A stretch of 64,000 nucleotides of DNA from positions 15,181-79,180 of the forward strand of contig CAZAXH010000004.1 of the NCBI GenBank assembly GCA_964489065.1. The letters run 5' to 3'. A program made the translations under genes and the position numbers. Origin of the DNA: an uncultured Planctomycetales bacterium (lineage in GTDB: Bacteria > Omnitrophota > Gorgyraeia > Zapsychrales > JANLHA01). How positions within the stretch are numbered: position 1 is the stretch's first letter; each line of letters opens with the position of its first letter. Under the pieces are notes generated by a model that had not been told where the DNA came from, did no database searches, and saw only the letters and a list, made by a program, of their open reading frames with translations. Positions 1,132 to 52,700 of this stretch are shown one piece after another.

Positions 1132-3063
1132 ATGAGAGACACAGTAGACAGTCCCAGCGATCAACAAAAAGTTAAACCCCGCTTACAACCAGAGAAAAGG
1201 ACGTTCGGCCCGATCGATAATCTGGAAGCCCATGTATCATCGGACTGGTGGTGCCGCATCTTCAACGCCAATTATTTAAAGACCGATGCCGACGTCGTGG
1301 ATGATCCGTCCATTACTCGTGAGGAAATACAGCTTTTCCTCTCCTCCGTACAACTGCAAAAAGACCACCTTATACTTGACCTATGCTGCGGACAAGGGCG
1401 TCACTGCCTGGAACTGGCCAGGCAGGGATTTAAAAACATCTACGGCCTCGACCGCTCTCATTATCTCATCCAAAGGGCCCGTTTACAGACCAAACGGGAA
1501 GGGTTGAATATTAAATTCAAAGAAGGCGACGCCAGGAAACTTCCTTACCCTGCATGTAAATTCGACTGCGTGACCCTTCTGGGGAACAGTTTCGGGTATT
1601 TTGAAACCATTAATGACGACCTGCTGGTCTTAAAAGAAATTTTCCGGGTCATCAAGCCCTGGGGGAAAATCCTTATCGATGTTTCTGATGGAGACTATGT
1701 GCAAAAACATTTCAGCCCCCGGAGCTGGGAATGGATCGACAAAAAACATTTTGTCTGCCGGGAAAGATCTTTATCCATGGATAAACAGCGGCTCATCAGC
1801 CGGGAAGTCATCTCGCATGTGGAAAAAGGCGTGGTCGCCGACCAGTTTTACGCGGAACGGCTGTATTCCCGGGAGACATTATCCAACCTGCTGGAAAACG
1901 CGGGTTTTAAAGACATCCGCTTTGCCCAGGAGATTAAAACGCATTCCCAAAGAAACCAAGACCTAGGCATGATGGAACAGCGGGTCATTGTTACTGCGGT
2001 CGTCAAAAAAGAATGGACCCCTCCCTCGGTCGCTAAGAAGGGCGTTGCCCTAAAAAACGTAGCGGTCATCTTGGGGGACCCGCAGAAAACCGACACGCTT
2101 AAACCCTCATCGGTCTTCGATGATGACGATTTTTATACGATTGACCAAATGAAGTCTGTCCTCAACCGGCTGCCCTTGTACAAATTCACGTATTTTAACA
2201 ACCATGACAGCTTGATCAATGATCTCCTGAAAAACCGGGGTAAAATTGATCTGGTGTTTAACCTGTGTGATGAGGGCTTCAACAATATGGCCAGTAAGGA
2301 GTTACACGTCCCGGCCCTTCTGGAACTGTTAAACATCCCTTATACCGGAGCTGGCCCCCAGTGTCTGGCTCATTGTTATGACAAATCCCTGGTCAGAGGG
2401 ATCGCCAATGAAATGGGCATTATGGTGCCTCAGGCGTTCTTTATCAAAGCGGAGGACAATGTGTTTGACCTGTCCTTCCCGTTCCCCGTTCTAGTGAAAC
2501 CGAATTTCGGTGATTCCAGTCTTGGAATCACCCAAAATAGCGTGGCCTACAACATTGAAGAACTGGTTAACGCGATTCAGCAGATCCGTGATCAAATCGG
2601 TTTCGACAAACCTATTTTAGTCGAGGAATTCCTGGAAGGCGCGGATTTAAGCGTGGGAATCATCGGGAATCCGCCGGAATCCTACACAATACTCCCCATC
2701 ATTGAAGAAGATTATTCCCTCCTCCCGAAAGAACTTCCGAGGATTTGCGGGTATGAAGCAAAATGGTTGCCCCAATCCCCCTATGGAAAAATCCGGTCTA
2801 TCCCGGCCAATCTTTCGGATGAAGCAGAAAAATATATTGAAGCCTGCTGTTTAAAACTTTTCGAACGGCTGGAATGCCGGGACTACGCCCGGGTGGACTG
2901 GCGGCTGGATAAGGCAGGAAATCCAAAACTTCTGGAAGTCAACCCCAATCCCGGATGGTGCTGGGACGGCCACTTGGCCAAAATGGCAAAATTAGCAGAC
3001 ATCTCCTATGCCCGTATGCTGGAAGATATCCTAAAAGTCGCCAGCGAGCGGCTATGGAAGTAG
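1132..3063 (+). CDS. Fusion protein: N-terminal class I SAM-dependent methyltransferase plus C-terminal ATP-grasp ligase resembling D-Ala-D-Ala ligase
   Basis: Methyltransferase motif I (ILDLCCGQGRHCLELARQG) and post-I acidic residue (YGLDRS) in the N-terminal third. The C-terminal half has ATP-grasp hallmarks (PVLVKPNFGDSSLGI, VEEFLEGADLSVGIIGN, LLEVNPNPGW). RBS-like purine-rich leader before the ATG. Confidence 0.8.
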   Translation: MRDTVDSPSDQQKVKPRLQPEKRTFGPIDNLEAHVSSDWWCRIFNANYLKTDADVVDDPSITREEIQLFLSSVQLQKDHLILDLCCGQGRHCLELARQGFKNIYGLDRSHYLIQRARLQTKREGLNIKFKEGDARKLPYPACKFDCVTLLGNSFGYFETINDDLLVLKEIFRVIKPWGKILIDVSDGDYVQKHFSPRSWEWIDKKHFVCRERSLSMDKQRLISREVISHVEKGVVADQFYAERLYSRETLSNLLENAGFKDIRFAQEIKTHSQRNQDLGMMEQRVIVTAVVKKEWTPPSVAKKGVALKNVAVILGDPQKTDTLKPSSVFDDDDFYTIDQMKSVLNRLPLYKFTYFNNHDSLINDLLKNRGKIDLVFNLCDEGFNNMASKELHVPALLELLNIPYTGAGPQCLAHCYDKSLVRGIANEMGIMVPQAFFIKAEDNVFDLSFPFPVLVKPNFGDSSLGITQNSVAYNIEELVNAIQQIRDQIGFDKPILVEEFLEGADLSVGIIGNPPESYTILPIIEEDYSLLPKELPRICGYEAKWLPQSPYGKIRSIPANLSDEAEKYIEACCLKLFERLECRDYARVDWRLDKAGNPKLLEVNPNPGWCWDGHLAKMAKLADISYARMLEDILKVASERLWK

Positions 3064-7009: not shown

Positions 7010-7966
7010 CTATCCGAATAACGGACCGGCCAAAATTTTCCGGCTTATATCAAGGGCCGACTTCAAAACATATTCCGCGGCTTTTTGATTTGTAAAATAC
7101 CCGGATGTCCGGGTTGTCTTCTGCCTTATAACAAGCACAACCACATCCTGGGCCGATTTTAACTCAAGCGTAATATTCCGGGGGGCGTCTTTTATAAGAG
7201 GGTCGACTTTGTCAAAAAATTTATGAGATTTGCCTATCAAAACACAATATAAATAAGGATAATCCCGGCCTTCCACGTTATTAATGGAAATCTGCACCTG
7301 CAACCCCAGGCACTCTGCCGGCGCGGGGATAAACCTTAACATCAACCGGGCGTCCGTGGGCACGCGTTTCCCGTCTTTCGTCGGCTGGGTTGCCAGCATG
7401 GGCAGGACATGCACATCGCTCGGGGAGGATAAAAACCGCATCATCTGTTCCAGGAGTTTAATCTTAATAATAAGCTGATCTTTTTTAAGATAACTCCGCA
7501 CCCCCGTGACCCAATGAGGGGCGAAAAGGACAAACGTGTCCCAGGCCCAGAACTTAGCCAGCCGTTCCTGCCCGGCCCCCATCAGGTCAACCCAGATAAA
7601 AAGCCCAACCCCCGCGCAAACGGCTGCACAGCAAAACCCCAAAGGATTGGTGATATCAAAACAATCCTGATCCCATTTCTTCAACTGCTTCTGCTTCAAC
7701 TGTACTTTTTGATATTCATCCGGGGTGACCTGATTCCATTCCTCCGGCCCGTTCGACTTCGGGTGGGCGGAATACCCTTTAATAAGCGAGAGGGCCGTGG
7801 CCGCCGCCAGGAGAAACAATCCCCCCCAGAACTCAATCATCAGTTGCACCAGAAGCCCGATGGCGAGCAGGGCTAAAATCAGGATCAACCGGCCATGATA
7901 AGGCATCCTCTTGGCGAACAGGAAATGGATCTCCCCCCGTCTTTGCGCATCAGGCAGCCAGGTCAT
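7010..7966 (-). CDS. Integral membrane protein of unknown function. Operon member, with an ATGA overlap onto the rSAM stop.
   Basis: Several hydrophobic helices in the N-terminal half. No recognisable catalytic motif. A 4-nt overlap with the upstream gene implies translational coupling. Confidence 0.5.
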   Translation of the reverse strand: MTWLPDAQRRGEIHFLFAKRMPYHGRLILILALLAIGLLVQLMIEFWGGLFLLAAATALSLIKGYSAHPKSNGPEEWNQVTPDEYQKVQLKQKQLKKWDQDCFDITNPLGFCCAAVCAGVGLFIWVDLMGAGQERLAKFWAWDTFVLFAPHWVTGVRSYLKKDQLIIKIKLLEQMMRFLSSPSDVHVLPMLATQPTKDGKRVPTDARLMLRFIPAPAECLGLQVQISINNVEGRDYPYLYCVLIGKSHKFFDKVDPLIKDAPRNITLELKSAQDVVVLVIRQKTTRTSGYFTNQKAAEYVLKSALDISRKILAGPLFG

Positions 7967-9294
7967 GCACCCACCTCCACCGGTTTATGCTGCAGAAGCT
8001 CCGCATACCCGACCTGCCGCCAGTACAGCGGGCAGCCGCCGTTGCAGACGGCTAGGTCTTCACACGCCTGGCATTGCTCGTGAGCGAAACGTTTGCGCTG
8101 AAAATATTGAAAAGCCGGGCCGGCCCACAACTCCCGGAAACGGCCCTGCCTATCCAGAATATTTCCCATAGGCAGAGGGAAACTGGAACACGGCAGGATA
8201 TCCCCATTCGGGGCGATGCTAAGCAACCCGTCACAGGCCGCGCATCCCCGGTTCCCCAAGCCATGCACAATCGGATTAAAAATGCATAACGGCGTGGGGG
8301 AATACCACATAAATTCCAGCCCCTGCGCGACAGCTTCGCGCTGAATATCCAAAACAACCGGGCCGATATCGGAATACCGGACCAGCACCTCTCCCAAATG
8401 CGCGGCCGCCGACCCTTCGGGCATAAGCAAGTTCATAGAAAATTTATTAAAGCCCTCCTCACGCACCAAGGCCAGAACCGCGTTCAAATGATCTTTGTTC
8501 AGGGCAGAAATAGTTGTGTTGGTGTGCACCCGGATCTTCGCGTCCCGCAAGGCTCTCAACCCAACCAGGGTCTTCGCAAAGGCCCCAGGAGAACGGACAA
8601 TCCGGTCATGCAGGCGCGCGTCCGCGGCCTCCAGGCTGACCTGGGCGGAATCCAGCCCCGCGGCTTTTAAAGTGGCCGCCAAGGCGGGCGTGACCAACGT
8701 CCCATTGGTAATGAGATTCGTCCACATTTTTAACGACTTGGCGAACCGTACCAGTTCTGGCAAATCCGGCCGGAGCGTGGGTTCCCCACCGGTAAAGCTG
8801 ACGGACGGCACTTCGGCCTCTTCCCGGATCACGATCAACACACGTTTCAGCTGATCAAGCGAGCATTCCTCCGCCCGGGTATCCTTGCGGCAACCGCACC
8901 CCGCATAGCAAAACTGGCAGGCCAGGTTGCACCGGTACGTGACCGCGATCTCGCTTAAAACCGGCAGGGTGTTAAACGGAAGTTTGAAAGGATACCGCTC
9001 GACCGCTTTACGGCCGTCCCGTTCATGATAACAGCCTTTAAAGAGCGCCATGATATCACAAAAAAAATAATGCAGGTCCCGGGCGACCCCCTCTTTATCC
9101 GGATACCGGTCCACGACCGTATAAATACTGTTTCCCCCCAAAAGTGTTTTCAAAACAGACACTCCCGAAGCGTTGATTTTATGCGCCTCGTTGGGAATCT
9201 TGATGAGCAAGTGATCATGCTCCCGCACGTGGATATACGGAGAAACCCGTTTGATATATTCGTCAACCCACCGGATGTTGGCATAATATTCCAT
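7963..9294 (-). CDS. Radical SAM enzyme with C-terminal SPASM domain and about 120-aa N-terminal extension (maturase-like)
   Basis: CNLACQFCYAG (CxxxCxxC). C-terminal Cys cluster (CAACDGLL...ILPCS...CQACEDLAVCNGGCP), typical of a SPASM/twitch auxiliary Fe-S domain. Start reassigned to MEYYANIRW, with a GGAG RBS 11 nt after the stop of the upstream gene. The ORF-track start at 9411 would overlap the upstream coding repeat. Confidence 0.85.
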   Translation of the reverse strand: MEYYANIRWVDEYIKRVSPYIHVREHDHLLIKIPNEAHKINASGVSVLKTLLGGNSIYTVVDRYPDKEGVARDLHYFFCDIMALFKGCYHERDGRKAVERYPFKLPFNTLPVLSEIAVTYRCNLACQFCYAGCGCRKDTRAEECSLDQLKRVLIVIREEAEVPSVSFTGGEPTLRPDLPELVRFAKSLKMWTNLITNGTLVTPALAATLKAAGLDSAQVSLEAADARLHDRIVRSPGAFAKTLVGLRALRDAKIRVHTNTTISALNKDHLNAVLALVREEGFNKFSMNLLMPEGSAAAHLGEVLVRYSDIGPVVLDIQREAVAQGLEFMWYSPTPLCIFNPIVHGLGNRGCAACDGLLSIAPNGDILPCSSFPLPMGNILDRQGRFRELWAGPAFQYFQRKRFAHEQCQACEDLAVCNGGCPLYWRQVGYAELLQHKPVEVGA

Positions 9295-9305
9295 GGCAGA
9301 CTCCG

Positions 9306-10988
9306 TTAATGCCCGCTGCTCACGCATGCCCCATGACAGGCCCCGTGGCAGGCGGAATGACACGCGGAATGGCAGGCGGAATGACACGCAGAATGGCACG
9401 CGTCGTGGCAAACATTCTGCAAAAACGGCCCTTCATAACAAAGCGAGGAATTCCGGAAAGAGGAAAACCCTTCCTTGACCTGGGGCGCGCTCACCTCAAG
9501 CGCCCGTCCGACGTCCTGGCTCCGGCGGTAATAATCCCGGTCATGATAATACATCCGGCCGTAATAATGGTGATAATATCCGTCCCAATAATACCCGGCA
9601 TCCGTTTCCTGTTGGGGGTTTTGTTTCTCCTGTTGCAGGATGGCGTCCATACGCTGTTTGTAATACGCTTTTGTGGCGTCCACATCGCAATCCCAGATTT
9701 TTTGCTCAAGCCCCGCGGCCATGGTATGGAAAAGGTCATTGATAAATCCCTGCGGGATATTCCCGGACATATCAATCGCGTTTAAAATATTATTTTCATA
9801 AGGGTCATCCCCACCCGCCGCGCCTGAAACCCGCTCGACCTTCAGCGGATCATGGCTGATCATCTTAAGGAGGCCTTTGCGTTCAAGATTCTGGATCATC
9901 AAGCCGGCCAATGTCCCCAAAGGGATATCCAGCAGAAGCCCTGCCTCCAACGCCGTCAGGTCCTTGTTGATTTTCCCGTCCTTGCGGAACGACCCCACCT
10001 GAATTTTCGGAGGCACCCATTCGTCCCCATCCCAACGGATCGGAGCGATGCCGTCCTGAGCCGATAGCATGGACACATGCTTTCTCGTCATCATTAAAAA
10101 CGGAAAAAGAAAAAAGACAACGCCTCCGAACAGCAGCAGCCCCACCAGACCGCCGGCGGAAAGCGGCACCACCGCCAGGACACTCCCGGGGAAGTACCGG
10201 TTGAAAATATAATTTTCTTCTGCCTTCCGGAATCCGGGGGTATCCGCCCAGGGTTGGGGAGCAGCCATGGTCGTGAGATTAAAATATTTCGCGTCGAGAT
10301 ACGTCTGAATCTGAAAATGATACCGTGAGGGCAAATCATCACGGTGAAAGCGGACCGTGAACACCGGATTCCCTTGCGCGTTGGTCGCCGCCGGATAATC
10401 GATCTTATAGCGCTGATTGACATACTTTTCGGTCAAAAAGTTAACGGCGGACAGGTCCTGGGGGGAAACTTCAGGCGTGTTCATAACGACAGGGTAATGA
10501 ACGGTTACCGTTTCATGCTCCAGGGCGTCACTCCACTGAACCGGGGCCCAGTTAAAAACCGCTAACCGGCCGTGCGGGCTTTCGGTCAGGACGACATGGC
10601 CGCTCTCCTGTAAATCAGTTTCATAATTAAAACGGTAGGTAATCTCTCCGTCATGAAAAGCCTGCCCTCCCGCCAACACGATATCATATTTAGTCGACGA
10701 CAAGTATGTAATATCAAGGGAATACTGCGTGCCGTTCTCGTCAACGGCGTGCGCGTCCAGATCATTGAACCGGGGCACCCCGGCAAAACCTTCAAAATAA
10801 AACCCATGCAGGTCAGCCGCCCGGCAGGCCCAACGGACCGCATAGGAAACCCGGGCTTTCCCATCCGGGTCCAAGACCACATCCACCTCAACCCAGCGCA
10901 TTTTAAATGACCCGCACCAGGCTGGAGCAGCCAGGCTGATGAGAAATATCAGCGTTATGAGGGGAAAAATTGTCTTTTTCTTAAACAT
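9306..10988 (-). CDS. DUF2207-like membrane protein with a C-terminal Tyr/His-rich segment and a (C-H-x-A)x7 repeat tail
   Basis: Signal peptide. About 250-aa extracytoplasmic domain. TM (VLAVVPLSAGGLVGLLLFGGVVFFLFPFLMM). A C-terminal cytoplasmic region ending YYWDGYYHHYYGRMYYHDRDYY...CHDACHSACHSACHSACHSACHGACHGACVSSGH. Confidence 0.7.
   Translation of the reverse strand: MFKKKTIFPLITLIFLISLAAPAWCGSFKMRWVEVDVVLDPDGKARVSYAVRWACRAADLHGFYFEGFAGVPRFNDLDAHAVDENGTQYSLDITYLSSTKYDIVLAGGQAFHDGEITYRFNYETDLQESGHVVLTESPHGRLAVFNWAPVQWSDALEHETVTVHYPVVMNTPEVSPQDLSAVNFLTEKYVNQRYKIDYPAATNAQGNPVFTVRFHRDDLPSRYHFQIQTYLDAKYFNLTTMAAPQPWADTPGFRKAEENYIFNRYFPGSVLAVVPLSAGGLVGLLLFGGVVFFLFPFLMMTRKHVSMLSAQDGIAPIRWDGDEWVPPKIQVGSFRKDGKINKDLTALEAGLLLDIPLGTLAGLMIQNLERKGLLKMISHDPLKVERVSGAAGGDDPYENNILNAIDMSGNIPQGFINDLFHTMAAGLEQKIWDCDVDATKAYYKQRMDAILQQEKQNPQQETDAGYYWDGYYHHYYGRMYYHDRDYYRRSQDVGRALEVSAPQVKEGFSSFRNSSLCYEGPFLQNVCHDACHSACHSACHSACHSACHGACHGACVSSGH
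9318..9404. repeat. 12-nt tandem repeat (about 7 units, consensus aatgRcaSgcRg on the + strand) encoding the CHxA repeats
   Basis: Seen directly: ...aatgacacgcgg aatggcaggcgg aatgacacgcag aatggcacgcgt... Confidence 0.8.
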
Positions 10989-11130
10989 AAAAATTTATAA
11001 GGGGATAATAGTAAAAATCATTATAATAACTCTTCTGCCGGGTGTCCAGAATCCAAATATAAATTAATGTCTATCAAAAGACAAAAAATAACGGGTCTGA
11101 AGTGTCTCCGGGAACCGCTTCTATTATTTT

Positions 11131-11159
11131 TTGCATTATCCAGGTTCGTTGTTATAATG
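11131..11159 (+). promoter_or_regulatory. Sigma70-like promoter for the + strand operon (TTGCAT-17-TATAAT)
   Basis: TTGCAT at 11131-11136 and TATAAT at 11154-11159 with a 17-nt spacer, about 35 nt upstream of the 11191 ATG in an AT-rich divergent intergenic region. Confidence 0.5.
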
Positions 11160-11190
11160 TGTTTTATTATTAAACTTTAAGGAAACCACC

Positions 11191-12837
11191 ATGCGGATTA
11201 CTTTTGTAGCTCTTGGCTGGGAGCAACTCAGCATTTCCATGCTGACCGCCCTAGCGAAACTCGACGGACATGAAGTGAGCCTTGCGTTCAGTCCCGGATT
11301 GTTCCATGACCGCTATAATCTGCGTGTCCCGTTTTTAGCCGCCATCTTCGATGACCGGACCCGGGTCTTAAAAACAATCGCCCAACAAAAGCCGGATGTC
11401 CTAGCCTTTTCAGCGATGACCGGGACCTATCAGTGGCTGCTGGGAATCGCGCGAGACGCCAAACGCCTGAACCCGAACGTCAAAGTCCTGTTCGGAGGCG
11501 TGCACGCCTCCGCCGTTCCGGACCGGGTCCTTCAACAAAAACCGGTCGATTTTGTTTGCGTCGGGGAGGGAGATATGGCTTTCCGGCTTATTTTGCAGGC
11601 TATCGCCCGCAAAAATTTTTCCGACCCGATCCCCAACACACGCTACAAAACGCCCGACGGAACGATTATCCGTGGCGCACAAACCGGTTTTATCCAGGAT
11701 TTAGACAGCCTCCCGGGCTTTGACAAATCCCTCTGGGAAGACCATATCCGTCTGGGAGACATTTATTTCACCATGGCTTCCCGGGGCTGCCCGTTCCGCT
11801 GCACCTACTGTTTTAATAGTTTCTTCAGTCAATTAGGCGGGCCCGACAAGACAAAATATGTCCGCCAGCGCAGCGCCGGACACATGTTAGAGGAACTGCG
11901 TTACGCCCGCCGGAGATATCATTTGCGGTTGGTCGAATTTGAAGACGACATTTTCACGTTTAACAAAAAATGGCTGAAAGACTTTCTGGACCAGTATAAA
12001 AAGGAGATCGGGATTCCTTTTCAATGCCTCTCCCACCCTTCCTTTATGGATGACGACGTTATCCGGTGGCTTTCCGAAGCCGGCTGCCGGTTTGTCCAAA
12101 TGGGGATCCAAAGCGCGGACGAAGACTTCAAAAACCGGATGATCAAGCGTTACGAAAAGACCCGGCATATTGAGCGTGTCATGCAAACAATGCGTAAATA
12201 TCATGTTGAACTGAAAGTCGACCACATGTTTGGGCTTCCGGAAGAACCCGTGTCAGCCCAGGAAAGCGCCCGGGAGCTCTATGCCAGAATCCCGCCCTAC
12301 CGGATTCAGACATTCTGGATGAATTACTTCCCGGGCACCGAAATGACAGAATACGCCCTGACAAACGGGCTCCTGTCTCCAAAAGAGGTCGAAAATCTTA
12401 AGGACGGAAATCAGCCTGATTTCTACCGCAACAGTTCGAGGGTCATGGCCCCGGAAAACCGAAAGCTCTACGCCGCCTATGAAACCATATTCAAACTTCT
12501 GCCGATTGTTCCCCCCGCCCTCAGGGAACACCTCCTGGCCCGATCCTTCCGGGAACTCCCCAAATTCCTGAATTCCTGGATCAGTTTTATGGCCGATGTT
12601 GTCAGCGGGTTATGGAGAAGAAATCCTGATCATATCGGTTACGCGAAATACTATCTTTATCATATGACCCGGTTTATCCTGGCAAAATGCGGGCGCACAA
12701 TGCCCCCGGCCACCCGGACGCGCGGGCACGAACGTTCTTTCCCCCGCCTCCGGCAAAACTCAAATCCAGTTCCAGTCCGGGGGGGCGAGCAAGCTGTTTC
12801 TTCGGAACCGGCCCTTATTTTCCGCAAAGGGAATTAA
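11191..12837 (+). CDS. B12-binding (class B) radical SAM enzyme
   Basis: N-terminal cobalamin-binding Rossmann-like region. Radical SAM core with ASRGCPFRCTYCFNS (CxxxCxxC). About 550 aa, typical for class B rSAM methyltransferase-like enzymes. Confidence 0.8.
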   Translation: MRITFVALGWEQLSISMLTALAKLDGHEVSLAFSPGLFHDRYNLRVPFLAAIFDDRTRVLKTIAQQKPDVLAFSAMTGTYQWLLGIARDAKRLNPNVKVLFGGVHASAVPDRVLQQKPVDFVCVGEGDMAFRLILQAIARKNFSDPIPNTRYKTPDGTIIRGAQTGFIQDLDSLPGFDKSLWEDHIRLGDIYFTMASRGCPFRCTYCFNSFFSQLGGPDKTKYVRQRSAGHMLEELRYARRRYHLRLVEFEDDIFTFNKKWLKDFLDQYKKEIGIPFQCLSHPSFMDDDVIRWLSEAGCRFVQMGIQSADEDFKNRMIKRYEKTRHIERVMQTMRKYHVELKVDHMFGLPEEPVSAQESARELYARIPPYRIQTFWMNYFPGTEMTEYALTNGLLSPKEVENLKDGNQPDFYRNSSRVMAPENRKLYAAYETIFKLLPIVPPALREHLLARSFRELPKFLNSWISFMADVVSGLWRRNPDHIGYAKYYLYHMTRFILAKCGRTMPPATRTRGHERSFPRLRQNSNPVPVRGGEQAVSSEPALIFRKGN

Positions 12838-12929
12838 AACCCTGAATAAAAAAATGAAAAAGGATTCCCCCGAAGGCTCAACCTTCGATATGATATTTAT
12901 ATTCTAAACAGTCAAGTCAAAAAAATCTT

Positions 12930-14711
12930 ATGCGACACTTTTTCCTTAAAAACCTGAAATGGATTGCCGATGACCCGCTCCGGGCCCTTGTTTTATGCCT
13001 GCTTTTGACTTTTCTCGCCTACAGCAACAGCCTGGCCCATGACTTTATCATTGACGACTTCAGCTTTATCGTGGACTGGCCGTTGATTCAGGATCTGCGT
13101 AACTTCCCGGAATTTTTCGGCCCGCACAATCAGCCTCCGGGCGAAGAAGGCGTGTACTCCCCGCTTAAAACCCTCATGCACGCCCTCAATTACGCTCTTT
13201 GGGGCACGGATCCGCTGGGGCACCATCTGGTCGCTATATTAGTTCTGTTGCTTTCCACTTTCTACGTTTACCGCCTCAGTTTCCTCGTCACGGCCAACCG
13301 GCTGATCGCGTTTCTCTCCGCGGTCTTTTTCGGCCTGCATCCCATTCACACCGAAACCGCCGCCACAAAAACCGGCAGCGTGGATACCACCGGGGTCCTT
13401 TTTTTATTCATCGCTTTCTTTTACTACCTCCGGGCCCGCCAGGCCCGCGCACCCCAAACAGGGCCGGCCTCGTTCCTATGGGGAACCCGGGATTATAAAC
13501 TGGCGCTCTTATTTTCATATTTGTCCACATTCCTGCATGAACTTTGCCTGACCATCCCTCTGCTCTGGGTTTTGTATGAACTCGCTTTTCCCCTGCCCCG
13601 GGAAAAGGGAAGGATTCAACACGCCACGCTGCGCGTTCTTCCGTTCTTTATCATCACCGTCATTTATATCGCCATCAAATTCTGGCTCCTGAAAGACATT
13701 TCCCGGGGAGATTATCTGGGCGGTAGTTTTTATCTCACGATGCTCGTCATCCTGAAGGTGCAAGTCAAAAATTGTCTGATCATGTTTTTCCCGTTTACTC
13801 TGGCGGTAAAACACGTCATATCAAAAGGGATCTTTGCCGTGGACGTCTGGGACTTCGACCAGCAGGCGGTTCTGCAGCAATCTATCCTGGACCCCCAAGT
13901 CATCAGCTCCATCCTGTTTTTAGGGTTGATCGCAGCGGCAACGGTCTGGGCTTATAAAAACAACCGGCTGATTTTTTTCTGTATCGGCTGGTTCTATATC
14001 AGCGTTCTGCCGGCGGCCAACATCGTTCCCATAGAATCCTTTTTTGCTGAACGTTACCTCTACCCTGGCTCCTGGGCCTTTTGCTTACTCATCGCTTATG
14101 GCGTCTTCCTCGGGCTTGATCCGGAGAAAACCGCCCCTGTCCCCATCTTCGGACGGATGATTCCCCGGGGCCAGGTTCAAAACACGGCCATCGCCCTTCT
14201 TCTCATCACCACGACCTTCTATTTTGTGCGGACCTTTCTCCGGAACCGCGACTGGCGCACGCAATTGACCTTTTTCCAGGCAGAAGTGCGGGCCAACCCC
14301 CAAAGCGCCGATCTCTTCAACGGACTGGGGAAAGCGTATCTGCAAGACGGACAGCCCCAAAAGGCCACAGAAGCTTTTCAACGCGCAGTAGCCATTCAAC
14401 CTAAAATGCCGCTTTATTACTTCAGCCTGGCCGAGGCATACACGGCGCAAAAAGATTTTCCCCAGGCGGAAAAAATTTTACTTAAAGCCATTCACCTCGA
14501 CCCCCAATATGCTGAAGCTTATTTTAACGTGGCCATTATTAAAATTCTGCAAGGCGACATGAAAAGCGCAGAAGATTACGCGGCCCGCTCCTTTAACCTG
14601 CTCCTGGAACAAGGACGCTGGGAAGACAGCCAGCGGTACAGAAAAGCCTTTTATGATTTCTCTTATCAAAATTTTATTACTCATCCCGTGCCCAAAGAGG
14701 ACGCCTCGTAA
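12930..14711 (+). CDS. Polytopic membrane protein with C-terminal TPR repeats, resembling PMT/TMTC or GT39/ArnT-type glycosyltransferases
   Basis: About 10 TM helices followed by TPR-like repeats (AEVRANPQSADLFNGLGKAYLQDGQPQKATEAFQRAVAIQP...YFNVAIIKILQGD). This architecture is typical of TPR-bearing membrane glycosyltransferases. Confidence 0.55.
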   Translation: MRHFFLKNLKWIADDPLRALVLCLLLTFLAYSNSLAHDFIIDDFSFIVDWPLIQDLRNFPEFFGPHNQPPGEEGVYSPLKTLMHALNYALWGTDPLGHHLVAILVLLLSTFYVYRLSFLVTANRLIAFLSAVFFGLHPIHTETAATKTGSVDTTGVLFLFIAFFYYLRARQARAPQTGPASFLWGTRDYKLALLFSYLSTFLHELCLTIPLLWVLYELAFPLPREKGRIQHATLRVLPFFIITVIYIAIKFWLLKDISRGDYLGGSFYLTMLVILKVQVKNCLIMFFPFTLAVKHVISKGIFAVDVWDFDQQAVLQQSILDPQVISSILFLGLIAAATVWAYKNNRLIFFCIGWFYISVLPAANIVPIESFFAERYLYPGSWAFCLLIAYGVFLGLDPEKTAPVPIFGRMIPRGQVQNTAIALLLITTTFYFVRTFLRNRDWRTQLTFFQAEVRANPQSADLFNGLGKAYLQDGQPQKATEAFQRAVAIQPKMPLYYFSLAEAYTAQKDFPQAEKILLKAIHLDPQYAEAYFNVAIIKILQGDMKSAEDYAARSFNLLLEQGRWEDSQRYRKAFYDFSYQNFITHPVPKEDAS

Positions 14712-14726
14712 CGAATCATCGCCATT

Positions 14727-15911
14727 ATGAAACCTGTTTCTTTACAGTCTGTTCTGAAGAATATAATCTGTCAGTCCTGCCCTAACGGATGTCACCTCAG
14801 CCTTTACGGCGAAAACAGGGACTGTATAAAAATCACAGGGAATCAATGTCAAAAAGGCGTTGATTACGCTCTGCCTTTTCTCCAGGCCTTGGCTGGACCC
14901 AGCCCTTCGGCTTGCGCCGGGTCCTTTCATCCGGTTCAAATCACGGAGGCACGTTCACCTGCCCCCTCCCGGCAAATCCTGCAAGATGTCGCTACGCAGT
15001 GGGGATTGGAGATAAAAACCCTCCTTCCCGGCCTCGATATTGACGGGAGCCCGGAAAGGAGCCTCTTCCGGACTGTATTCAAAAATGCCGCCGGAGAGCG
15101 CTATATTCTGGAACAAATCCCGCAAAAATCACTGGAAGCCAGGACACGAATTGCCGGCACCCTGGCCTATTTAAAACAGCAAGGACTAAAAAAAATCCAA
15201 CCTTACCTCCCTGGGCGTCAAAACCACTTCGTCCTAAAGCACGCGGGGCAATTTTGGCAAATCATTCCGTTTATCCCGGGAACCCCGTTGGACCGGCAAC
15301 ACTACCTTTATGAAAAATGGCGGGGGACCGAGCTGGCTGATTTTCTCATCGCGTTAAGAAACAAAAGCCTCGCGCTACCGTTTTTTGACCCCAGACAATT
15401 TTTTTCGCTCACAGACTACATCAGACAGATGTCTCAAAATATTCTTAAATATCATCCTTCCCTAGGCCGATCCCTGGAGCCGGTTCTGATATTTCTGGAA
15501 GAAAATTTCTTTCCCGTTTATGACACGTTCCCGCTCGCATTTTCTCATGGAGATTATCATCCCCTTAATATTATCTGGGGGTCTGCTGACATTCAGGCGG
15601 TGATTGACTGGGAATTCGCCGGCTATAAGCCGGAACAATATGACACCGCTAATCTGATCGGATGTATCGGCATAGAACACCCATCCGGCTTACGGGGGGA
15701 ACTGGTCACTGAATTTATCAAACGGCTCCGAGCAGCCCGGGTGATCCATGACATCAGCTGGCATTATCTGGTTGAATTCATCGTTGCGGTCCGGTTCGCG
15801 TGGCTTTCAGAATGGCTCCGCAAGAAAGACTCTGACATGATCGAGATGGAAACCGTCTACATGAAACTCTTGGTGGAAGAAAAATCTGCTCTCAAAAAAG
15901 CGTGGTTTTAG
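14727..15911 (+). CDS. Kinase of the APH/choline-kinase-like phosphotransferase family with an N-terminal Cys-rich CPxGC...GNxCxxG module resembling DUF1667
   Basis: N-terminus CQSCPNGCHLSLYGE...ITGNQCQKG. Kinase catalytic motifs HGDYHPLNIIW and IDWEFAGY (Brenner and DxE motifs). Confidence 0.65.
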   Translation: MKPVSLQSVLKNIICQSCPNGCHLSLYGENRDCIKITGNQCQKGVDYALPFLQALAGPSPSACAGSFHPVQITEARSPAPSRQILQDVATQWGLEIKTLLPGLDIDGSPERSLFRTVFKNAAGERYILEQIPQKSLEARTRIAGTLAYLKQQGLKKIQPYLPGRQNHFVLKHAGQFWQIIPFIPGTPLDRQHYLYEKWRGTELADFLIALRNKSLALPFFDPRQFFSLTDYIRQMSQNILKYHPSLGRSLEPVLIFLEENFFPVYDTFPLAFSHGDYHPLNIIWGSADIQAVIDWEFAGYKPEQYDTANLIGCIGIEHPSGLRGELVTEFIKRLRAARVIHDISWHYLVEFIVAVRFAWLSEWLRKKDSDMIEMETVYMKLLVEEKSALKKAWF

Positions 15912-49701: not shown

Positions 49702-52700
49702 TTATGGATGCCTGGGAACGGTCACCGTGGCTGCGGCGGTCGCACTGTTCCCGGAGACGTCCGTGGCAGAGTAAAGAAGCGTATAAATCCGGCCATTCGA
49801 CGACCCTTGCCGCTCAGCGCGCAAATAAATCTGGCCGTTCGCATCAACCCGAATGTCGGCTGTCGTATCCCCATCCGGCACCCCGGCATCATAATTAGGA
49901 TCATAGGTGTTGATTTGATCGCCTTCGTTCATAGTAATAGACGTTAACCTCACCAGAGGACCGGGATCGCAGGTATCCGCGGCCGTAACGACTGGCGTTA
50001 TCTTGACCATTTTATGATTTGGCGGCCACAAAACAGCGAGGTTCACGCTCACACTGATCTGTGGCGGGGTGGTGTCCCGGACAGTCACCTGCCCTGTTTG
50101 GGAATCGGCTGCGCCCATGGGATCTTCCACCGTCAAAGAAAAAGAATAAACACCCAAAGGAAGCGTGACGGTTTGGGTGACACCGGACAGATTCCCCCAA
50201 GGCCCGGACCAGAGATACGTTAAAGGATCTCCGTCCTCATCCGTAGACGCTGAACCATCCAGTACAACCGCACAGCCCTGCGGCCCGGTGCATTCCACGA
50301 CCCAATCCGAACCGGGCTGCGATTGAGGGGCATGGTTCAAAACCTCGGTCGTCCCGGCAGCCACTGCAATCTGCCGCCCCCGGAATGTCAGGACAACCGT
50401 CCTCGTCCCGTTGTTAATCAATGTTAATGTATCCGGATAAAAAATAATCTTATCCCCGGTTTCCAGCACGGCCGCGGCCACATCCCCGGAAAGCGCGTTC
50501 AATTCCACGTTCACAGGACCGCTTACGATATCCGCGCCGATACTGCCGCAGGTCACGACAACTTCGTCTCCGGGAGATAAAAATATATTCCCCGCCTCCG
50601 AACAGGCCGTCACTTCCGCCTGTACAGCGCCGCCGCTTGCATCGACCTTGATTCTGACCCCTGCTAAAGGATCAAAATCATCAACGATGGTCAGAACCTG
50701 ATCCCCCCGGCTCAGGATCTCGCCGTACGTGGCAGGATCGCTATGGTCATTAAAACTATTGGAATACCCGGTCACGTCACCGTCAACGGCGTCGGACAGC
50801 CCGTCGCCGTCATAATCAATCCGGTCAAGACTTCCGGTCACGGCATTGATTAACGAAACATTGGCGACATGATGCAGGGCCGTGTCATACTTGGACAGTT
50901 TCCGTTCCAGGTCAGCCTGGCTGTCCTCGTCGAAATTGGGCAGAGTCTCATCATAGAGAAAATGATTATATAAGCCCCAATTGTTCGGGTAACTGTGTAC
51001 TTTGTAGGACCACAACGACCAGCTCCAGCCTTCGGCATTGAAACGGCTCAAATAATACTCCCAAGCGTCCTTGATTCCGAACGCGTTAAATTCACCGACT
51101 AAAACAGGGACGTCATAATCTTCCTGGTAAACCTGTGAATCCGACACCTTCTGGTCAACAAACGCCTTATGATAGTCTATAACGTCAGTAAATGTCAGAT
51201 TAGGAATAAGTTCAGAATATTCTTCTGGGTTATACGCAGGGCAGGTCTCACCCAAGACAGGAAGCAGAAGTTCCCCGGTTGCCTCATTTCTATTTTCCCA
51301 ACAATAATAATGAAACTGGTACATCACGTTTTCCCAACTCATATCTTCCGGCTTGGGCAAAGAATCCCAATCCCAGGCGCCTTCCATGACGATGAGATGA
51401 TCCTCATCACCCACGGTATCGCGGATTTCCTGATAGATATCATCATAAAGGGCGTGCAGCAAAGCGAGACCGCCCACATAATCTTCAAATCCGGTCGGCT
51501 CATTTAAAAGATCATAGCCAAGCACTGCCGGATTATCCTTATAATGATCAGCGATCTTATTCCACAGTTCTACCGTCCGGTCCCGGTAAGCGCTCACCGC
51601 CGGATTAAATAACTGATGGAAATATCCGGGTTCCGGCGGTTCCACCGATTCCCGCCCGGTATGAAACTCCCGGCTCTGGCTTCCCGGAGCGCCGTGCAGA
51701 TCCAGAAGCACATAAATCCCGCGGTCCGCGCAGGCGTTCACGATTTCGTCAATCTTACTGAAATCAAAATTACCGCCGCAGGCCCAATTACCGCTTTCAT
51801 CCAGGTCGCAGATATTCCGGTAATAGAGCGGCAGTCGGACGTAATTGAACCCCATCCGCAGAATATTATCAAAGTCGCTTTCCTGAATATATGCGTCCTG
51901 ATAAACATTCAAAATATTTTGGGCCTCGGCACCTAAATATTCCCGAATGGTCCAGTCGTCAAAATACTTGCCTCCCTCCGGCTCATCCAGATGTTTTTCA
52001 AACTCCGGGCCCTTGCCCAACATCCAGGATTCAAGGAGCAGGTAATTGCCCAAGTTTACCCCTTTGAGTTGCACCACATCCCCGGCGCCATTCTGTTCCC
52101 GGAGATGAAGCCCCGCCGCCCGCACAAAGCCTTGCGGGTCATACAACAACGCCGGGCTCCACGCGCCGCTGTCAACCTCACCCACCGCGCGCACGCGGTA
52201 CCATTTACCGATGTCGGAACCCGACAAAGTTAACGTGGTCTGCGGCCCGCTGTAAATCTGCGTCCAGCCGCCGTCACGGCTGGCCCCTTCTTCCACCACA
52301 TAGGAAACCGCCAGCGGCTGGGCCGTCCATTCTACATACCCTTCCTGCAAGCGGGCATATTTAATCAGCGCCGGTTTAGCGAAATACTGAACCGCCTCGC
52401 TCCAATCAGACTCCACCAAGACAACCCCGTCGATTTCATTGGGGATGCCCCAGCGTACCCGCAGCCAGGAACTCTCCAGTTCCTGAAGCGCGACGCTCGT
52501 TTCCGTGCCGGAATAAATCGTTGTCCACGGCCCCTCTGACCCCGCAGCGCTCTGCTGCAGCGTGTAATGCGCACCGTCTAGATATTTATTCCAGGAAGCC
52601 ACCCCTTCCGGAAGCGCGGCCTGATTGATCGTCACCTCCGGCAACGCCGTGGCCCGGATGTCATCAAAGTAATACGTCCCCGGCCAAAAAATCTGAAGCT

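Follow-up and report, generated by a model that had tools for sequence, protein, structure and literature searches.

A cobalamin-type radical SAM enzyme and a TMTC-like glycosyltransferase as a probable two-gene module of Omnitrophota

Background

The window analysed here is a 64,000-nt stretch of contig CAZAXH010000004.1 from an uncultured bacterium of the phylum Omnitrophota, in which two operons diverge from a single AT-rich region. The minus-strand operon encodes a radical S-adenosylmethionine (SAM) enzyme of the SPASM type (rSAM/SPASM) and a 560-aa protein, while the plus-strand operon (11191-15911) encodes a cobalamin-type radical SAM enzyme (B12-rSAM), a membrane protein with C-terminal TPR repeats that resembles the TMTC glycosyltransferases of animals, and an APH-fold kinase. 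The question raised by this locus is whether the two operons belong to one modification pathway, as proposed by a first-pass annotation that combined methylation, glycosylation, phosphorylation and crosslinking, or whether its parts have been conserved separately. In silico analyses indicate that the two operons do not travel together outside a narrow clade, and that the B12-rSAM and the TMTC-like glycosyltransferase probably form a module of their own. Contigs closest to the window in public databases are metagenome-assembled genomes (MAGs) of Omnitrophota from sludge and digester samples.

Results and discussion

Independent conservation of the two units

Two sets of loci were compared. The first was obtained by scanning contigs that represent one genome per species for the B12-rSAM; it comprises 79 loci whose open reading frames (ORFs) were called, searched with all proteins of the window and clustered, and 71 distinct loci lying beyond the close relatives are referred to below as more distant. 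The second came from metagenome contigs, which were scanned with five aligned orthologues of the 560-aa protein; it comprises 79 loci (L094-L166 among them), 76 of which are not close relatives.

The full trio composed of the 560-aa protein, the rSAM/SPASM enzyme and a 318-aa protein, hereafter the cassette, was found in 46 of the 76 more distant loci of the second set, with order and strand being the same in 45 of these 46. The B12-rSAM, the TMTC-like domain and the kinase occur in none of the 76, 35 of which extend 3 kb or more beyond the 560-aa gene on its upstream side. Likewise, neither the kinase nor any of the rSAM/SPASM, 560-aa and 318-aa proteins was found in the 71 more distant B12-rSAM loci. 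The whole layout is kept in close relatives, namely L003 (75% B12-rSAM identity), L004/L013 (70%), L011 (82%) and L012 (96%), and cassette and pair are adjacent only where the B12-rSAM is at least 70% identical to that of the window, which also applies to L094, L095 and L111. On the evidence of gene neighbourhoods, the cassette and the B12-rSAM/TMTC pair are independently conserved and meet only in the narrow clade of the window. The coupled two-operon locus is therefore not borne out, with no occurrence of the other unit in 35 informative cassette loci or in 71 B12-rSAM loci, and the four-function pathway is left without comparative support; the first-pass annotation had itself named such a lack of synteny among relatives as speaking against its proposal.

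Recurrent association of the B12-rSAM with TMTC-like and GT2 genes

A TMTC-like gene occurs within +/-10 kb of the B12-rSAM in 19 of the 71 more distant loci and is directly adjacent to it in 13. A small glycosyltransferase of family GT2 (ca. 238 aa) is present in 32 of them, at a distance of no more than three genes in 27. In loci of the Omnitrophota type, the TMTC-like gene always follows the last rSAM gene on the same strand, and the called ORFs of the two abut or overlap in other Omnitrophota. The recurrent layout in this phylum consists of comM on the opposite strand, DUF212, LysM/YkuD, accA, rlmN, one to three B12-rSAM genes, one to three TMTC-like genes and the GT2 gene, and ends with an opposite-strand gene for a secreted 173-aa protein. 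Outside the phylum, a profile of the TMTC N-terminal domain detected TMTC-like proteins of 600-980 aa near members of the B12-rSAM family in six Bacteroidota loci and one Myxococcota locus. The association survives rearrangement, as judged from the varying number of copies (one to three), from locus L174 in which the order is TMTC-GT2-rSAM, and from the Bacteroidota and Myxococcota loci.

The small GT2 resembles synthases of polyprenyl-phosphate sugars by sequence comparison. Its closest solved structures are the Dol-P-Man synthase of P. furiosus (E 3.3e-14), GtrB and ArnC, which are all polyprenyl-phosphate glycosyltransferases, and its NCBIfam matches (ArnC, PgfS, AglJ and PpgS) all fall below cutoff. 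Regarding the linkage of genes within the plus-strand operon, the first-pass annotation holds for the B12-rSAM and the glycosyltransferase, which are a conserved pair, but not for the kinase, an unrelated neighbour (see below). A literature search of limited coverage retrieved no description of a B12-rSAM family associated with a TMTC-like GT-C and a GT2, nor of the divergent system labelled DUF2207/rSAM. Taken singly, the proteins are new members of known superfamilies, and the B12-rSAM/TMTC/GT2 association is apparently the undescribed part.

Probable relocation of the pair in the clade of the window

Genome OY759724.1, which carries L004/L013 and is that of a relative with 70% B12-rSAM identity, offers a view of how the pair may have come to its present location. 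In this genome the canonical locus is intact up to rlmN and continues, in L173, with a TMTC-like paralogue (P0181) and the GT2 gene, with no B12-rSAM; the rSAM and TMTC-like pair lies ca. 250 kb away from it, beside the SPASM cassette. In a rough neighbour-joining tree without support values, the rSAM sequences of the window clade fall among those of the "first copy after rlmN". The simplest reading of these data is that, in the window clade, the rSAM and one TMTC-like gene probably left the canonical cluster together, and the relocated pair appears to have landed between an unrelated rSAM/SPASM cassette and a block containing the kinase. That the two moved together is taken as evidence that rSAM and GT-C work together, and displacement from the cluster would place the gene of their GT2 partner outside the window.

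Just downstream of the TMTC-like/GT2 pair, L173 further contains two PMT_2/STT3-like GT-C genes (11385-14422, minus strand; 510 and 502 aa), so that this lineage encodes several polyprenyl-phosphate-dependent glycosyltransferases in one place.

Organization of the plus-strand operon

The features of the locus are as follows.

10989..11190, no strand assigned: AT-rich divergent intergenic region (202 bp, 31% GC) with promoter-like sites in both directions
11191..12837, + strand: class-B (cobalamin-binding) radical SAM enzyme, B12-rSAM, 548 aa (Pfam B12-binding and Radical_SAM)
12838..12929, + strand: AT-rich 92-nt spacer between the rSAM and glycosyltransferase genes (terminator scan negative)
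12930..14249, + strand: GT-C-fold, TMTC-like membrane glycosyltransferase domain, aa 1-440 of a 593-aa protein (predicted from fold and motifs)
14250..14711, + strand: C-terminal TPR domain of the 593-aa protein, ca. four TPR motifs, aa ~441-582 (Pfam TPR and structural model)
14727..15911, + strand: APH-fold kinase, 394 aa, with an N-terminal four-Cys module (Pfam APH)

ORF calling recovered the three plus-strand ORFs where the first-pass annotation had placed them, the full glycosyltransferase ORF spanning 12930-14711 (593 aa), and the gaps of 92 nt and 15 nt measured the same as claimed; no terminator-like site was detected in either gap. The AT-rich region of about 200 bp said to be common to both operons is equally present, its GC content of 31% comparing with 49% for the whole window. 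As for the TTGCAT-17-TATAAT promoter reported in this region, both hexamers exist (TTGCAT at 11131 and TATAAT at 11153) but are separated by 16 nt instead of 17. The promoter scanner reads the same plus-strand site as TTTGCA-17-TATAAT (11130-11158) with a TG extension and 10 matches out of 12, and finds a stronger site on the minus strand (TGGACA-17-TATAAT, 11048-11020; 11 of 12 matches). Both are consensus matches only, and the promoter rules of Omnitrophota may differ. Overall, nine promoter-like sites were counted in the intergenic region for 4.8 +/- 2.5 expected, a weak enrichment. Rfam and tRNA scans of the window were negative, so that neither a cobalamin riboswitch nor any other RNA was detected close to the operon.

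A class-B radical SAM enzyme of a large family

The assignment of the first gene to the class-B radical SAM enzymes stands. The protein carries a B12-binding domain (PF02310, aa 18-133, nt 11242-11589; 68.5 bits for a cutoff of 32.1) and a Radical_SAM core (PF04055, aa 197-356, nt 11779-12258; 65.1 bits), and its CxxxCxxC motif (C200-x3-C204-x2-C207) is invariant in 30 homologues. It reaches no NCBIfam equivalog cutoff, the best hit being HpnJ with 117.3 bits against 577.6, followed by ApyD (109.6 against 750), BchE (75.2 against 481) and HpnR (47.2 against 650). The classification by profiles that the first-pass annotation had suggested therefore confirms class B and excludes a bacteriochlorophyll or hopanoid orthologue, whose scores are far below cutoffs. 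An HpnJ, HpnR, BchE, ApyD, KedN5, PhpK or Mmp10-type identity was ruled out on the same grounds, and the names "Mg-protoporphyrin IX monomethyl ester cyclase" and "YgiQ" borne by JGI homologues are generic labels. The nearest solved structures are remote and correspond to AprD4 (55 bits), CysS and TokK.

At least 1534 relatives were found at E<=0.001 among 8000 candidates scored, and the 120 matches listed are 50-96% identical to the protein of the window, with names that include Omnitrophota and Chitinophagales. Judged by these comparisons, the B12-rSAM of the window is a member of a large uncharacterised family without a characterised orthologue. The first-pass annotation had described such enzymes as typically methylases; class-B radical SAM enzymes also catalyse ring contraction, dehydration and cyclisation, and several members are not methylases.

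Homologues of the B12-rSAM were further observed in Bacteroidota, in one to five copies, within large clusters (L007, L050, L054, L075, L076, L082 and others) that contain up to nine tandem PhyH dioxygenases, Asp/Arg hydroxylases, JmjC/Cupin_8 proteins and carbamoyltransferases, together with genes for a DegT aminotransferase, a GFO/IDH/MocA oxidoreductase, GT2, PMT_2 and ABC-2 transporters. These clusters look like an elaborate, undescribed tailoring pathway, and they support a sugar- or envelope-tailoring theme while leaving the substrate unfixed. In loci L028, L031, L039, L045, L051, L054, L068 and L079 (cluster c6), a Bacteroidota family of 566-aa proteins with ca. eight transmembrane (TM) segments adjoins the B12-rSAM in 9 of 17 cases. 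This family has no match in Pfam and no sequence match in PDB; in a profile-profile comparison, its N-terminal half (N-terminal 207 columns) aligned with the TMTC N-terminal domain with 88% probability (E 3e-6), which is suggestive and may point to a divergent GT-C.

A TMTC-like GT-C glycosyltransferase

The membrane protein encoded by the second gene was compared with PMT/TMTC O-mannosyltransferases by the first-pass annotation, and this comparison gained support from fold searches, motifs and a direct match to an animal protein. Pfam identifies in the 593-aa protein only TPR families (TPR_1, TPR_2 and related ones, residues ~430-560), with no match to PMT_2 or TMTC_DUF1736 at E <= 0.01, while several of its homologues carry PF13231 (PMT_2), PF02366 (PMT) or PF08409 (TMTC_DUF1736) in precomputed lists. 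An arthropod TMTC aligns to it with 25% identity over 87% of the query (E 3.9e-23). Across 53 homologues, D43, H137, P138 and P288 are invariant, and conservation reaches at least 90% for D42, E142, E204, E374, R375 and Y378. In TMTC1-4, a DD motif in the first external loop (M1) and an ERxxY motif (M7) have been assigned to catalysis and to donor-phosphate binding (PMC7801869). By these definitions, D42-D43 of the window protein matches the DD motif and E374-R375-x-x-Y378, in the loop preceding the last two TM helices, matches ERxxY.

AlphaFold (AF2) modelling was of high confidence, with a predicted local distance difference test score (pLDDT) of 94.5 for the full-length protein and 94.7 for residues 1-432. 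The N-terminal domain was modelled alone because the full-length model retrieved TPR proteins only when compared with PDB by Foldseek; TPR matches equally dominated a profile search made with the full-length alignment on the sequences of PDB. With the N-terminal model, ranks 1-26 are all occupied by GT-C or GT-C-related membrane enzymes, among which ArnT (5f15, the top match), Pmt4, STT3, AglB, PglB, ALG3, a GPI-transamidase chain, Pmt1/2 and EmbB/C, with query-normalised TM-scores of 0.30-0.52 and probabilities of 0.77-1.00. The structure-based classification suggested earlier thus places this domain with GT-C enzymes, and gene 2 is, on predicted structure and conserved motifs, a GT-C glycosyltransferase of the PMT/TMTC clan with C-terminal TPRs. 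The TPR domain, which consists of eight helices in the predicted model (ca. four motifs), would be periplasmic and on the same side as the catalytic loops by analogy with the architecture of TMTCs (PMC7801869). Full-length bacterial homologues of TMTC had been noticed in that same study and left unstudied.

The kinase as a neighbour gene

The third gene encodes a protein with an APH domain (PF01636, aa 113-327, nt 15063-15707; 64.7 bits for a cutoff of 23.2), in which the motifs S-H-G-D-Y-H-P-L-N (HGDxxxxN) and I-D-W-E are seen in the alignment. It reaches no NCBIfam equivalog (homoserine kinase, 22 bits against 271). At its N-terminus lies a four-Cys module, CxxCPNGCxL...GNxC (aa 15-45, nt 14769-14861), whose CxxCPxGC part occurs in 96 of 120 homologues. 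The description of this gene as a kinase fused to a DUF1667-like module therefore stands as regards the APH-like kinase and the reality of the four-Cys module, but not as regards the DUF1667 label: PF07892 gave no match at E <= 10 with the N-terminus of the window protein or with six homologous N-termini, and is missing from the precomputed Pfam lists of the 120 homologues. The only resemblance of the module is to Molybdop_Fe4S4, itself a four-Cys domain, and is weak (E 0.002-0.19, below cutoff).

The kinase family is common in Syntrophales/Smithella, with 44-50% identity over nearly the full length. In two neighbourhoods of the Syntrophales type, no rSAM or glycosyltransferase gene was found; neighbours there are an acetyl-CoA hydrolase/acetyltransferase and NADH-dehydrogenase-like Fe-S proteins, which give no functional lead. 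Many of the homologues (P0248-P0360, for instance from Smithella) were also seen to possess an extra N-terminal domain of the GIY-YIG nuclease type, which is odd for a kinase of the small-molecule type.

In L003 and L004, relatives with 70-75% identity, an opposite-strand TPP-enzyme gene and a spacer of ca. 500 bp separate the glycosyltransferase from the kinase. This gene (TPP_enzyme_N/M/C, 567-583 aa) lies at 13455-15206 in L003 and 13587-15290 in L004, on the minus strand in both, and is not in the window. Since it splits off the kinase in these two loci, the kinase is no obligate member of the transcription unit, and the 15-nt gap between GT-C and kinase reflects either a deletion in the lineage of the window or an insertion in the others. 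From these comparisons, the kinase is probably a neighbour gene outside the conserved pair.

The divergent rSAM/SPASM cassette and other neighbouring genes

The 560-aa protein of the cassette (9306-10988, minus strand) ends with ca. eight tandem four-residue units, (A-C-H-x)n. Five orthologues that share 71-96% identity elsewhere have exactly the same tail (100% identity), and the pattern (ACH[S/D/G])n...ACVSGG[A/S][H/R] is found in essentially every full-length homologue, down to ca. 30% identity. Wherever the ACH-repeat protein occurs, its rSAM/SPASM and 318-aa partners are found with it (46 trios), and the tail probably serves either in metal binding or as a maturase substrate fused to the protein. 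The protein reaches no NCBIfam model, and the "DUF2207" label given earlier to the divergent gene falls below threshold (E 0.014; 16 bits for a cutoff of 24.4). Its rSAM/SPASM partner matches rSAM_ACGX at 98.8 bits, below the cutoff of 400. The ORF of this enzyme (7963-9411, minus strand) has a TTG start at 9411, which creates a 106-nt overlap with the upstream 560-aa gene; its true start is probably further downstream, since proteins of 443-454 aa are predicted by gene callers on contigs that are identical or related. We consider the ACH tail beside an rSAM/SPASM enzyme a more striking object than the rSAM/GT-C pair.

Elsewhere in the window, positions 1132-3063 (plus strand) encode a 643-aa protein in which a class-I SAM methyltransferase is fused to an ATP-grasp domain of the D-Ala-D-Ala-ligase type; the close relatives L003 and L011 have kept this gene at the block's far end. 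A very long ORF (1962 aa) occupies 49702-55590 (minus strand).

A proposed mechanism and the points that weigh against it

On balance, we favour the reading in which the rSAM and the TMTC-like GT-C form a conserved two-gene module, independent of the kinase and of the cassette, that represents a displaced piece of an envelope-glycosylation cluster. In such a module, the GT2 would load a sugar onto polyprenyl phosphate at the cytoplasmic face of the membrane, and the cytoplasmic B12-rSAM would tailor this lipid-linked sugar or its precursor, most simply by C-methylation, the acceptor being a less likely target. After flipping, this sugar would be transferred by the GT-C to acceptors in the periplasm or envelope that the TPR domain recruits, as proposed for TMTCs. 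Sugar C-methylation as the specific role of the rSAM is advanced tentatively and is doubtful when taken by itself. Transfer of O-mannosyl groups by the GT-C, from polyprenyl-phosphate-mannose to Ser/Thr, may be envisaged by analogy and finds indirect support in the DPMS/GtrB/ArnC-like GT2 proteins of other genomes. The broadest version, in which a widespread B12-rSAM family tailors polyprenyl-phosphate sugars with one to three enzymes per locus while TMTC-like GT-Cs glycosylate envelope proteins, in Omnitrophota and with relatives in Bacteroidota and Myxococcota, is speculative and rather unlikely to hold as a whole.

Several points weigh against the module or against its details. No GT2 of this kind is present in the 64-kb window, which makes the link to a donor synthase an indirect one for this genome. 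Two loci, L173 and L175, display TMTC-GT2 without rSAM, implying that the GT-C/GT2 pair is the core and the rSAM a frequent accessory, not an obligate partner, and 31 of the 71 B12-rSAM loci have neither a GT2 nor a TMTC-like gene nearby. Much of the adjacency seen in Omnitrophota could be inherited synteny and not the product of selection, and co-transcription is suggested by gene spacing only. The HpnJ, ApyD and AprD4 matches of the B12-rSAM, all far below family cutoffs, do not identify a substrate or a reaction for it. Finally, pair and cassette stay adjacent over ca. five lineages (70-96% B12-rSAM identity), so that a clade-specific functional link is possible.

Alternative explanations

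Three other explanations were weighed against the envelope-glycosylation module. In the first, the B12-rSAM modifies a membrane or envelope lipid (acyl, isoprenoid or lipid-A-like) and the GT-C acts in the manner of ArnT, placing a sugar onto lipid instead of protein. The GT-C domain has its top structural match in ArnT, the GT2 resembles ArnC, the top NCBIfam match of the rSAM (HpnJ) acts on a lipid-linked sugar, some Omnitrophota loci put rSAM-GT2 beside gpsA, and the Bacteroidota loci offer an Arn-pathway-like set with DegT, GFO/IDH/MocA, LpxO-type Asp/Arg hydroxylases, LPG_synthase_TM and a small 3-TM protein. However, the TPR domain, the DD and ERxxY motifs and the TMTC match all point to the protein-glycosylating TMTC branch, the matches to lipid-acting rSAMs are all far below cutoff, and no lipid A or hopanoid gene occurs among the genes examined around the pair (window 1132-22442). 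We consider a lipid target unlikely.

In the second, the B12-rSAM acts on the protein acceptor before export, by side-chain C-methylation or another radical modification, and the GT-C later glycosylates the same proteins. Class-B rSAMs are established methylases of peptides in pathways for ribosomally synthesized and post-translationally modified peptides (RiPPs; PoyB/C, ApyD), hydroxylases of the protein type (Asp/Arg hydroxylase, JmjC/Cupin_8, PhyH) abound in the Bacteroidota loci, and small secreted proteins lie between rSAM and GT2 in some loci. Set against this, the commonest partner of the rSAM family is the GT2 (in 32 of 71 loci) and not a recognisable precursor peptide, no conserved small ORF is found beside the pair in the window, and the scores of RiPP models are far below cutoff, which together make modification of the acceptor very unlikely.

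The third explanation, that of a single pathway in which both operons act on a common substrate such as the 560-aa protein or its Cys/His tail, to be crosslinked, methylated, glycosylated and phosphorylated, can draw on the common 202-bp promoter region, on the adjacency of the units in every relative of at least 70% identity (L003, L004/L013, L011, L012, L094, L095 and L111) and on peptide C-methyltransferase models (ApyD, rSAM_ocin_1) among the weak NCBIfam matches of the B12-rSAM, but is highly improbable given the absence of the B12-rSAM, TMTC-like and kinase genes from all 76 distant 560-aa loci and of cassette and kinase from all 71 distant B12-rSAM loci, the ancestral rlmN/TMTC/GT2 context of the rSAM, the splitting off of the kinase by the TPP-enzyme gene, and a repeat tail that would be cytoplasmic while the active site of the GT-C faces the periplasm.

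Comparison with known systems

The closest counterparts of the GT-C are animal TMTC1-4, which likewise combine an N-terminal multi-span GT-C with TPR repeats, have DD in the first external loop and ERxxY, and show direct sequence similarity through the arthropod TMTC. The window protein differs from these in being bacterial and shorter, with ca. four TPR motifs, in having the K of KE(T/Q)xxT replaced (THEL) and in scoring below Pfam PMT_2/DUF1736. To our knowledge, no TMTC is paired with a radical SAM enzyme.

A division of labour between GT2 and GT-C exists in the protein O-mannosylation of actinobacteria (Ppm1/Pmt), where a cytoplasmic GT2 makes the polyprenyl-phosphate sugar and the GT-C transfers it outside the membrane (PMC5882110). 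The pairing of GT2 and GT-C genes in the canonical Omnitrophota locus is comparable, whereas the GT-C is here of the TMTC type with TPRs and not of the PMT type with a MIR domain, the GT2 lies outside the window and an extra B12-rSAM is present. In the Arn pathway (ArnC/ArnD/ArnE-F/ArnT), a sugar carried by polyprenyl phosphate is tailored on the cytoplasmic side by the deformylase ArnD, then flipped and transferred to lipid A by ArnT. The fold search ranks ArnT first and ArnC figures among the best GT2 matches, but in the present system a radical SAM protein is the candidate tailoring enzyme and a protein-binding TPR domain is attached to the GT-C.

Radical SAM enzymes acting on sugars are also known. 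Among aminoglycoside pathways, GenK and GenD1 are sugar-modifying rSAMs of class B or B12-like type, as is AprD4, a radical SAM enzyme with a B12-type domain that acts on sugar carbons and whose structure, at 55 bits, is the closest solved one, though very remote. The Bacteroidota loci of the family resemble sugar-tailoring clusters (DegT, GFO/IDH/MocA, carbamoyltransferase, PhyH), but the substrates of aminoglycoside enzymes are soluble pseudo-oligosaccharides and no GT-C partner is involved. For the hopanoid head group, the GT2 HpnI attaches a sugar to the lipid and the radical SAM enzyme HpnJ then remodels this sugar (PMC12324291). HpnJ, of the HpnI/HpnK/HpnJ set, is the best NCBIfam match of the window rSAM, yet with 117 bits against 577.6 the latter is not an orthologue, and no hopanoid genes were seen nearby.

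Conclusions

Adjacency and a common promoter region within one clade gave the false impression of a four-activity pathway. The recurrent pairing of TMTC-like and GT2 genes suggests a route of donor supply for bacterial TMTC homologues, and the one to three B12-rSAMs that frequently accompany them point to unexplored chemistry on lipid-linked sugars or acceptors. If true, this would provide a function for a B12-rSAM family of at least 1534 relatives and for envelope glycosylation in an uncultured phylum, and Omnitrophota would possess a system of protein O-glycosylation decorated by radical SAM chemistry.

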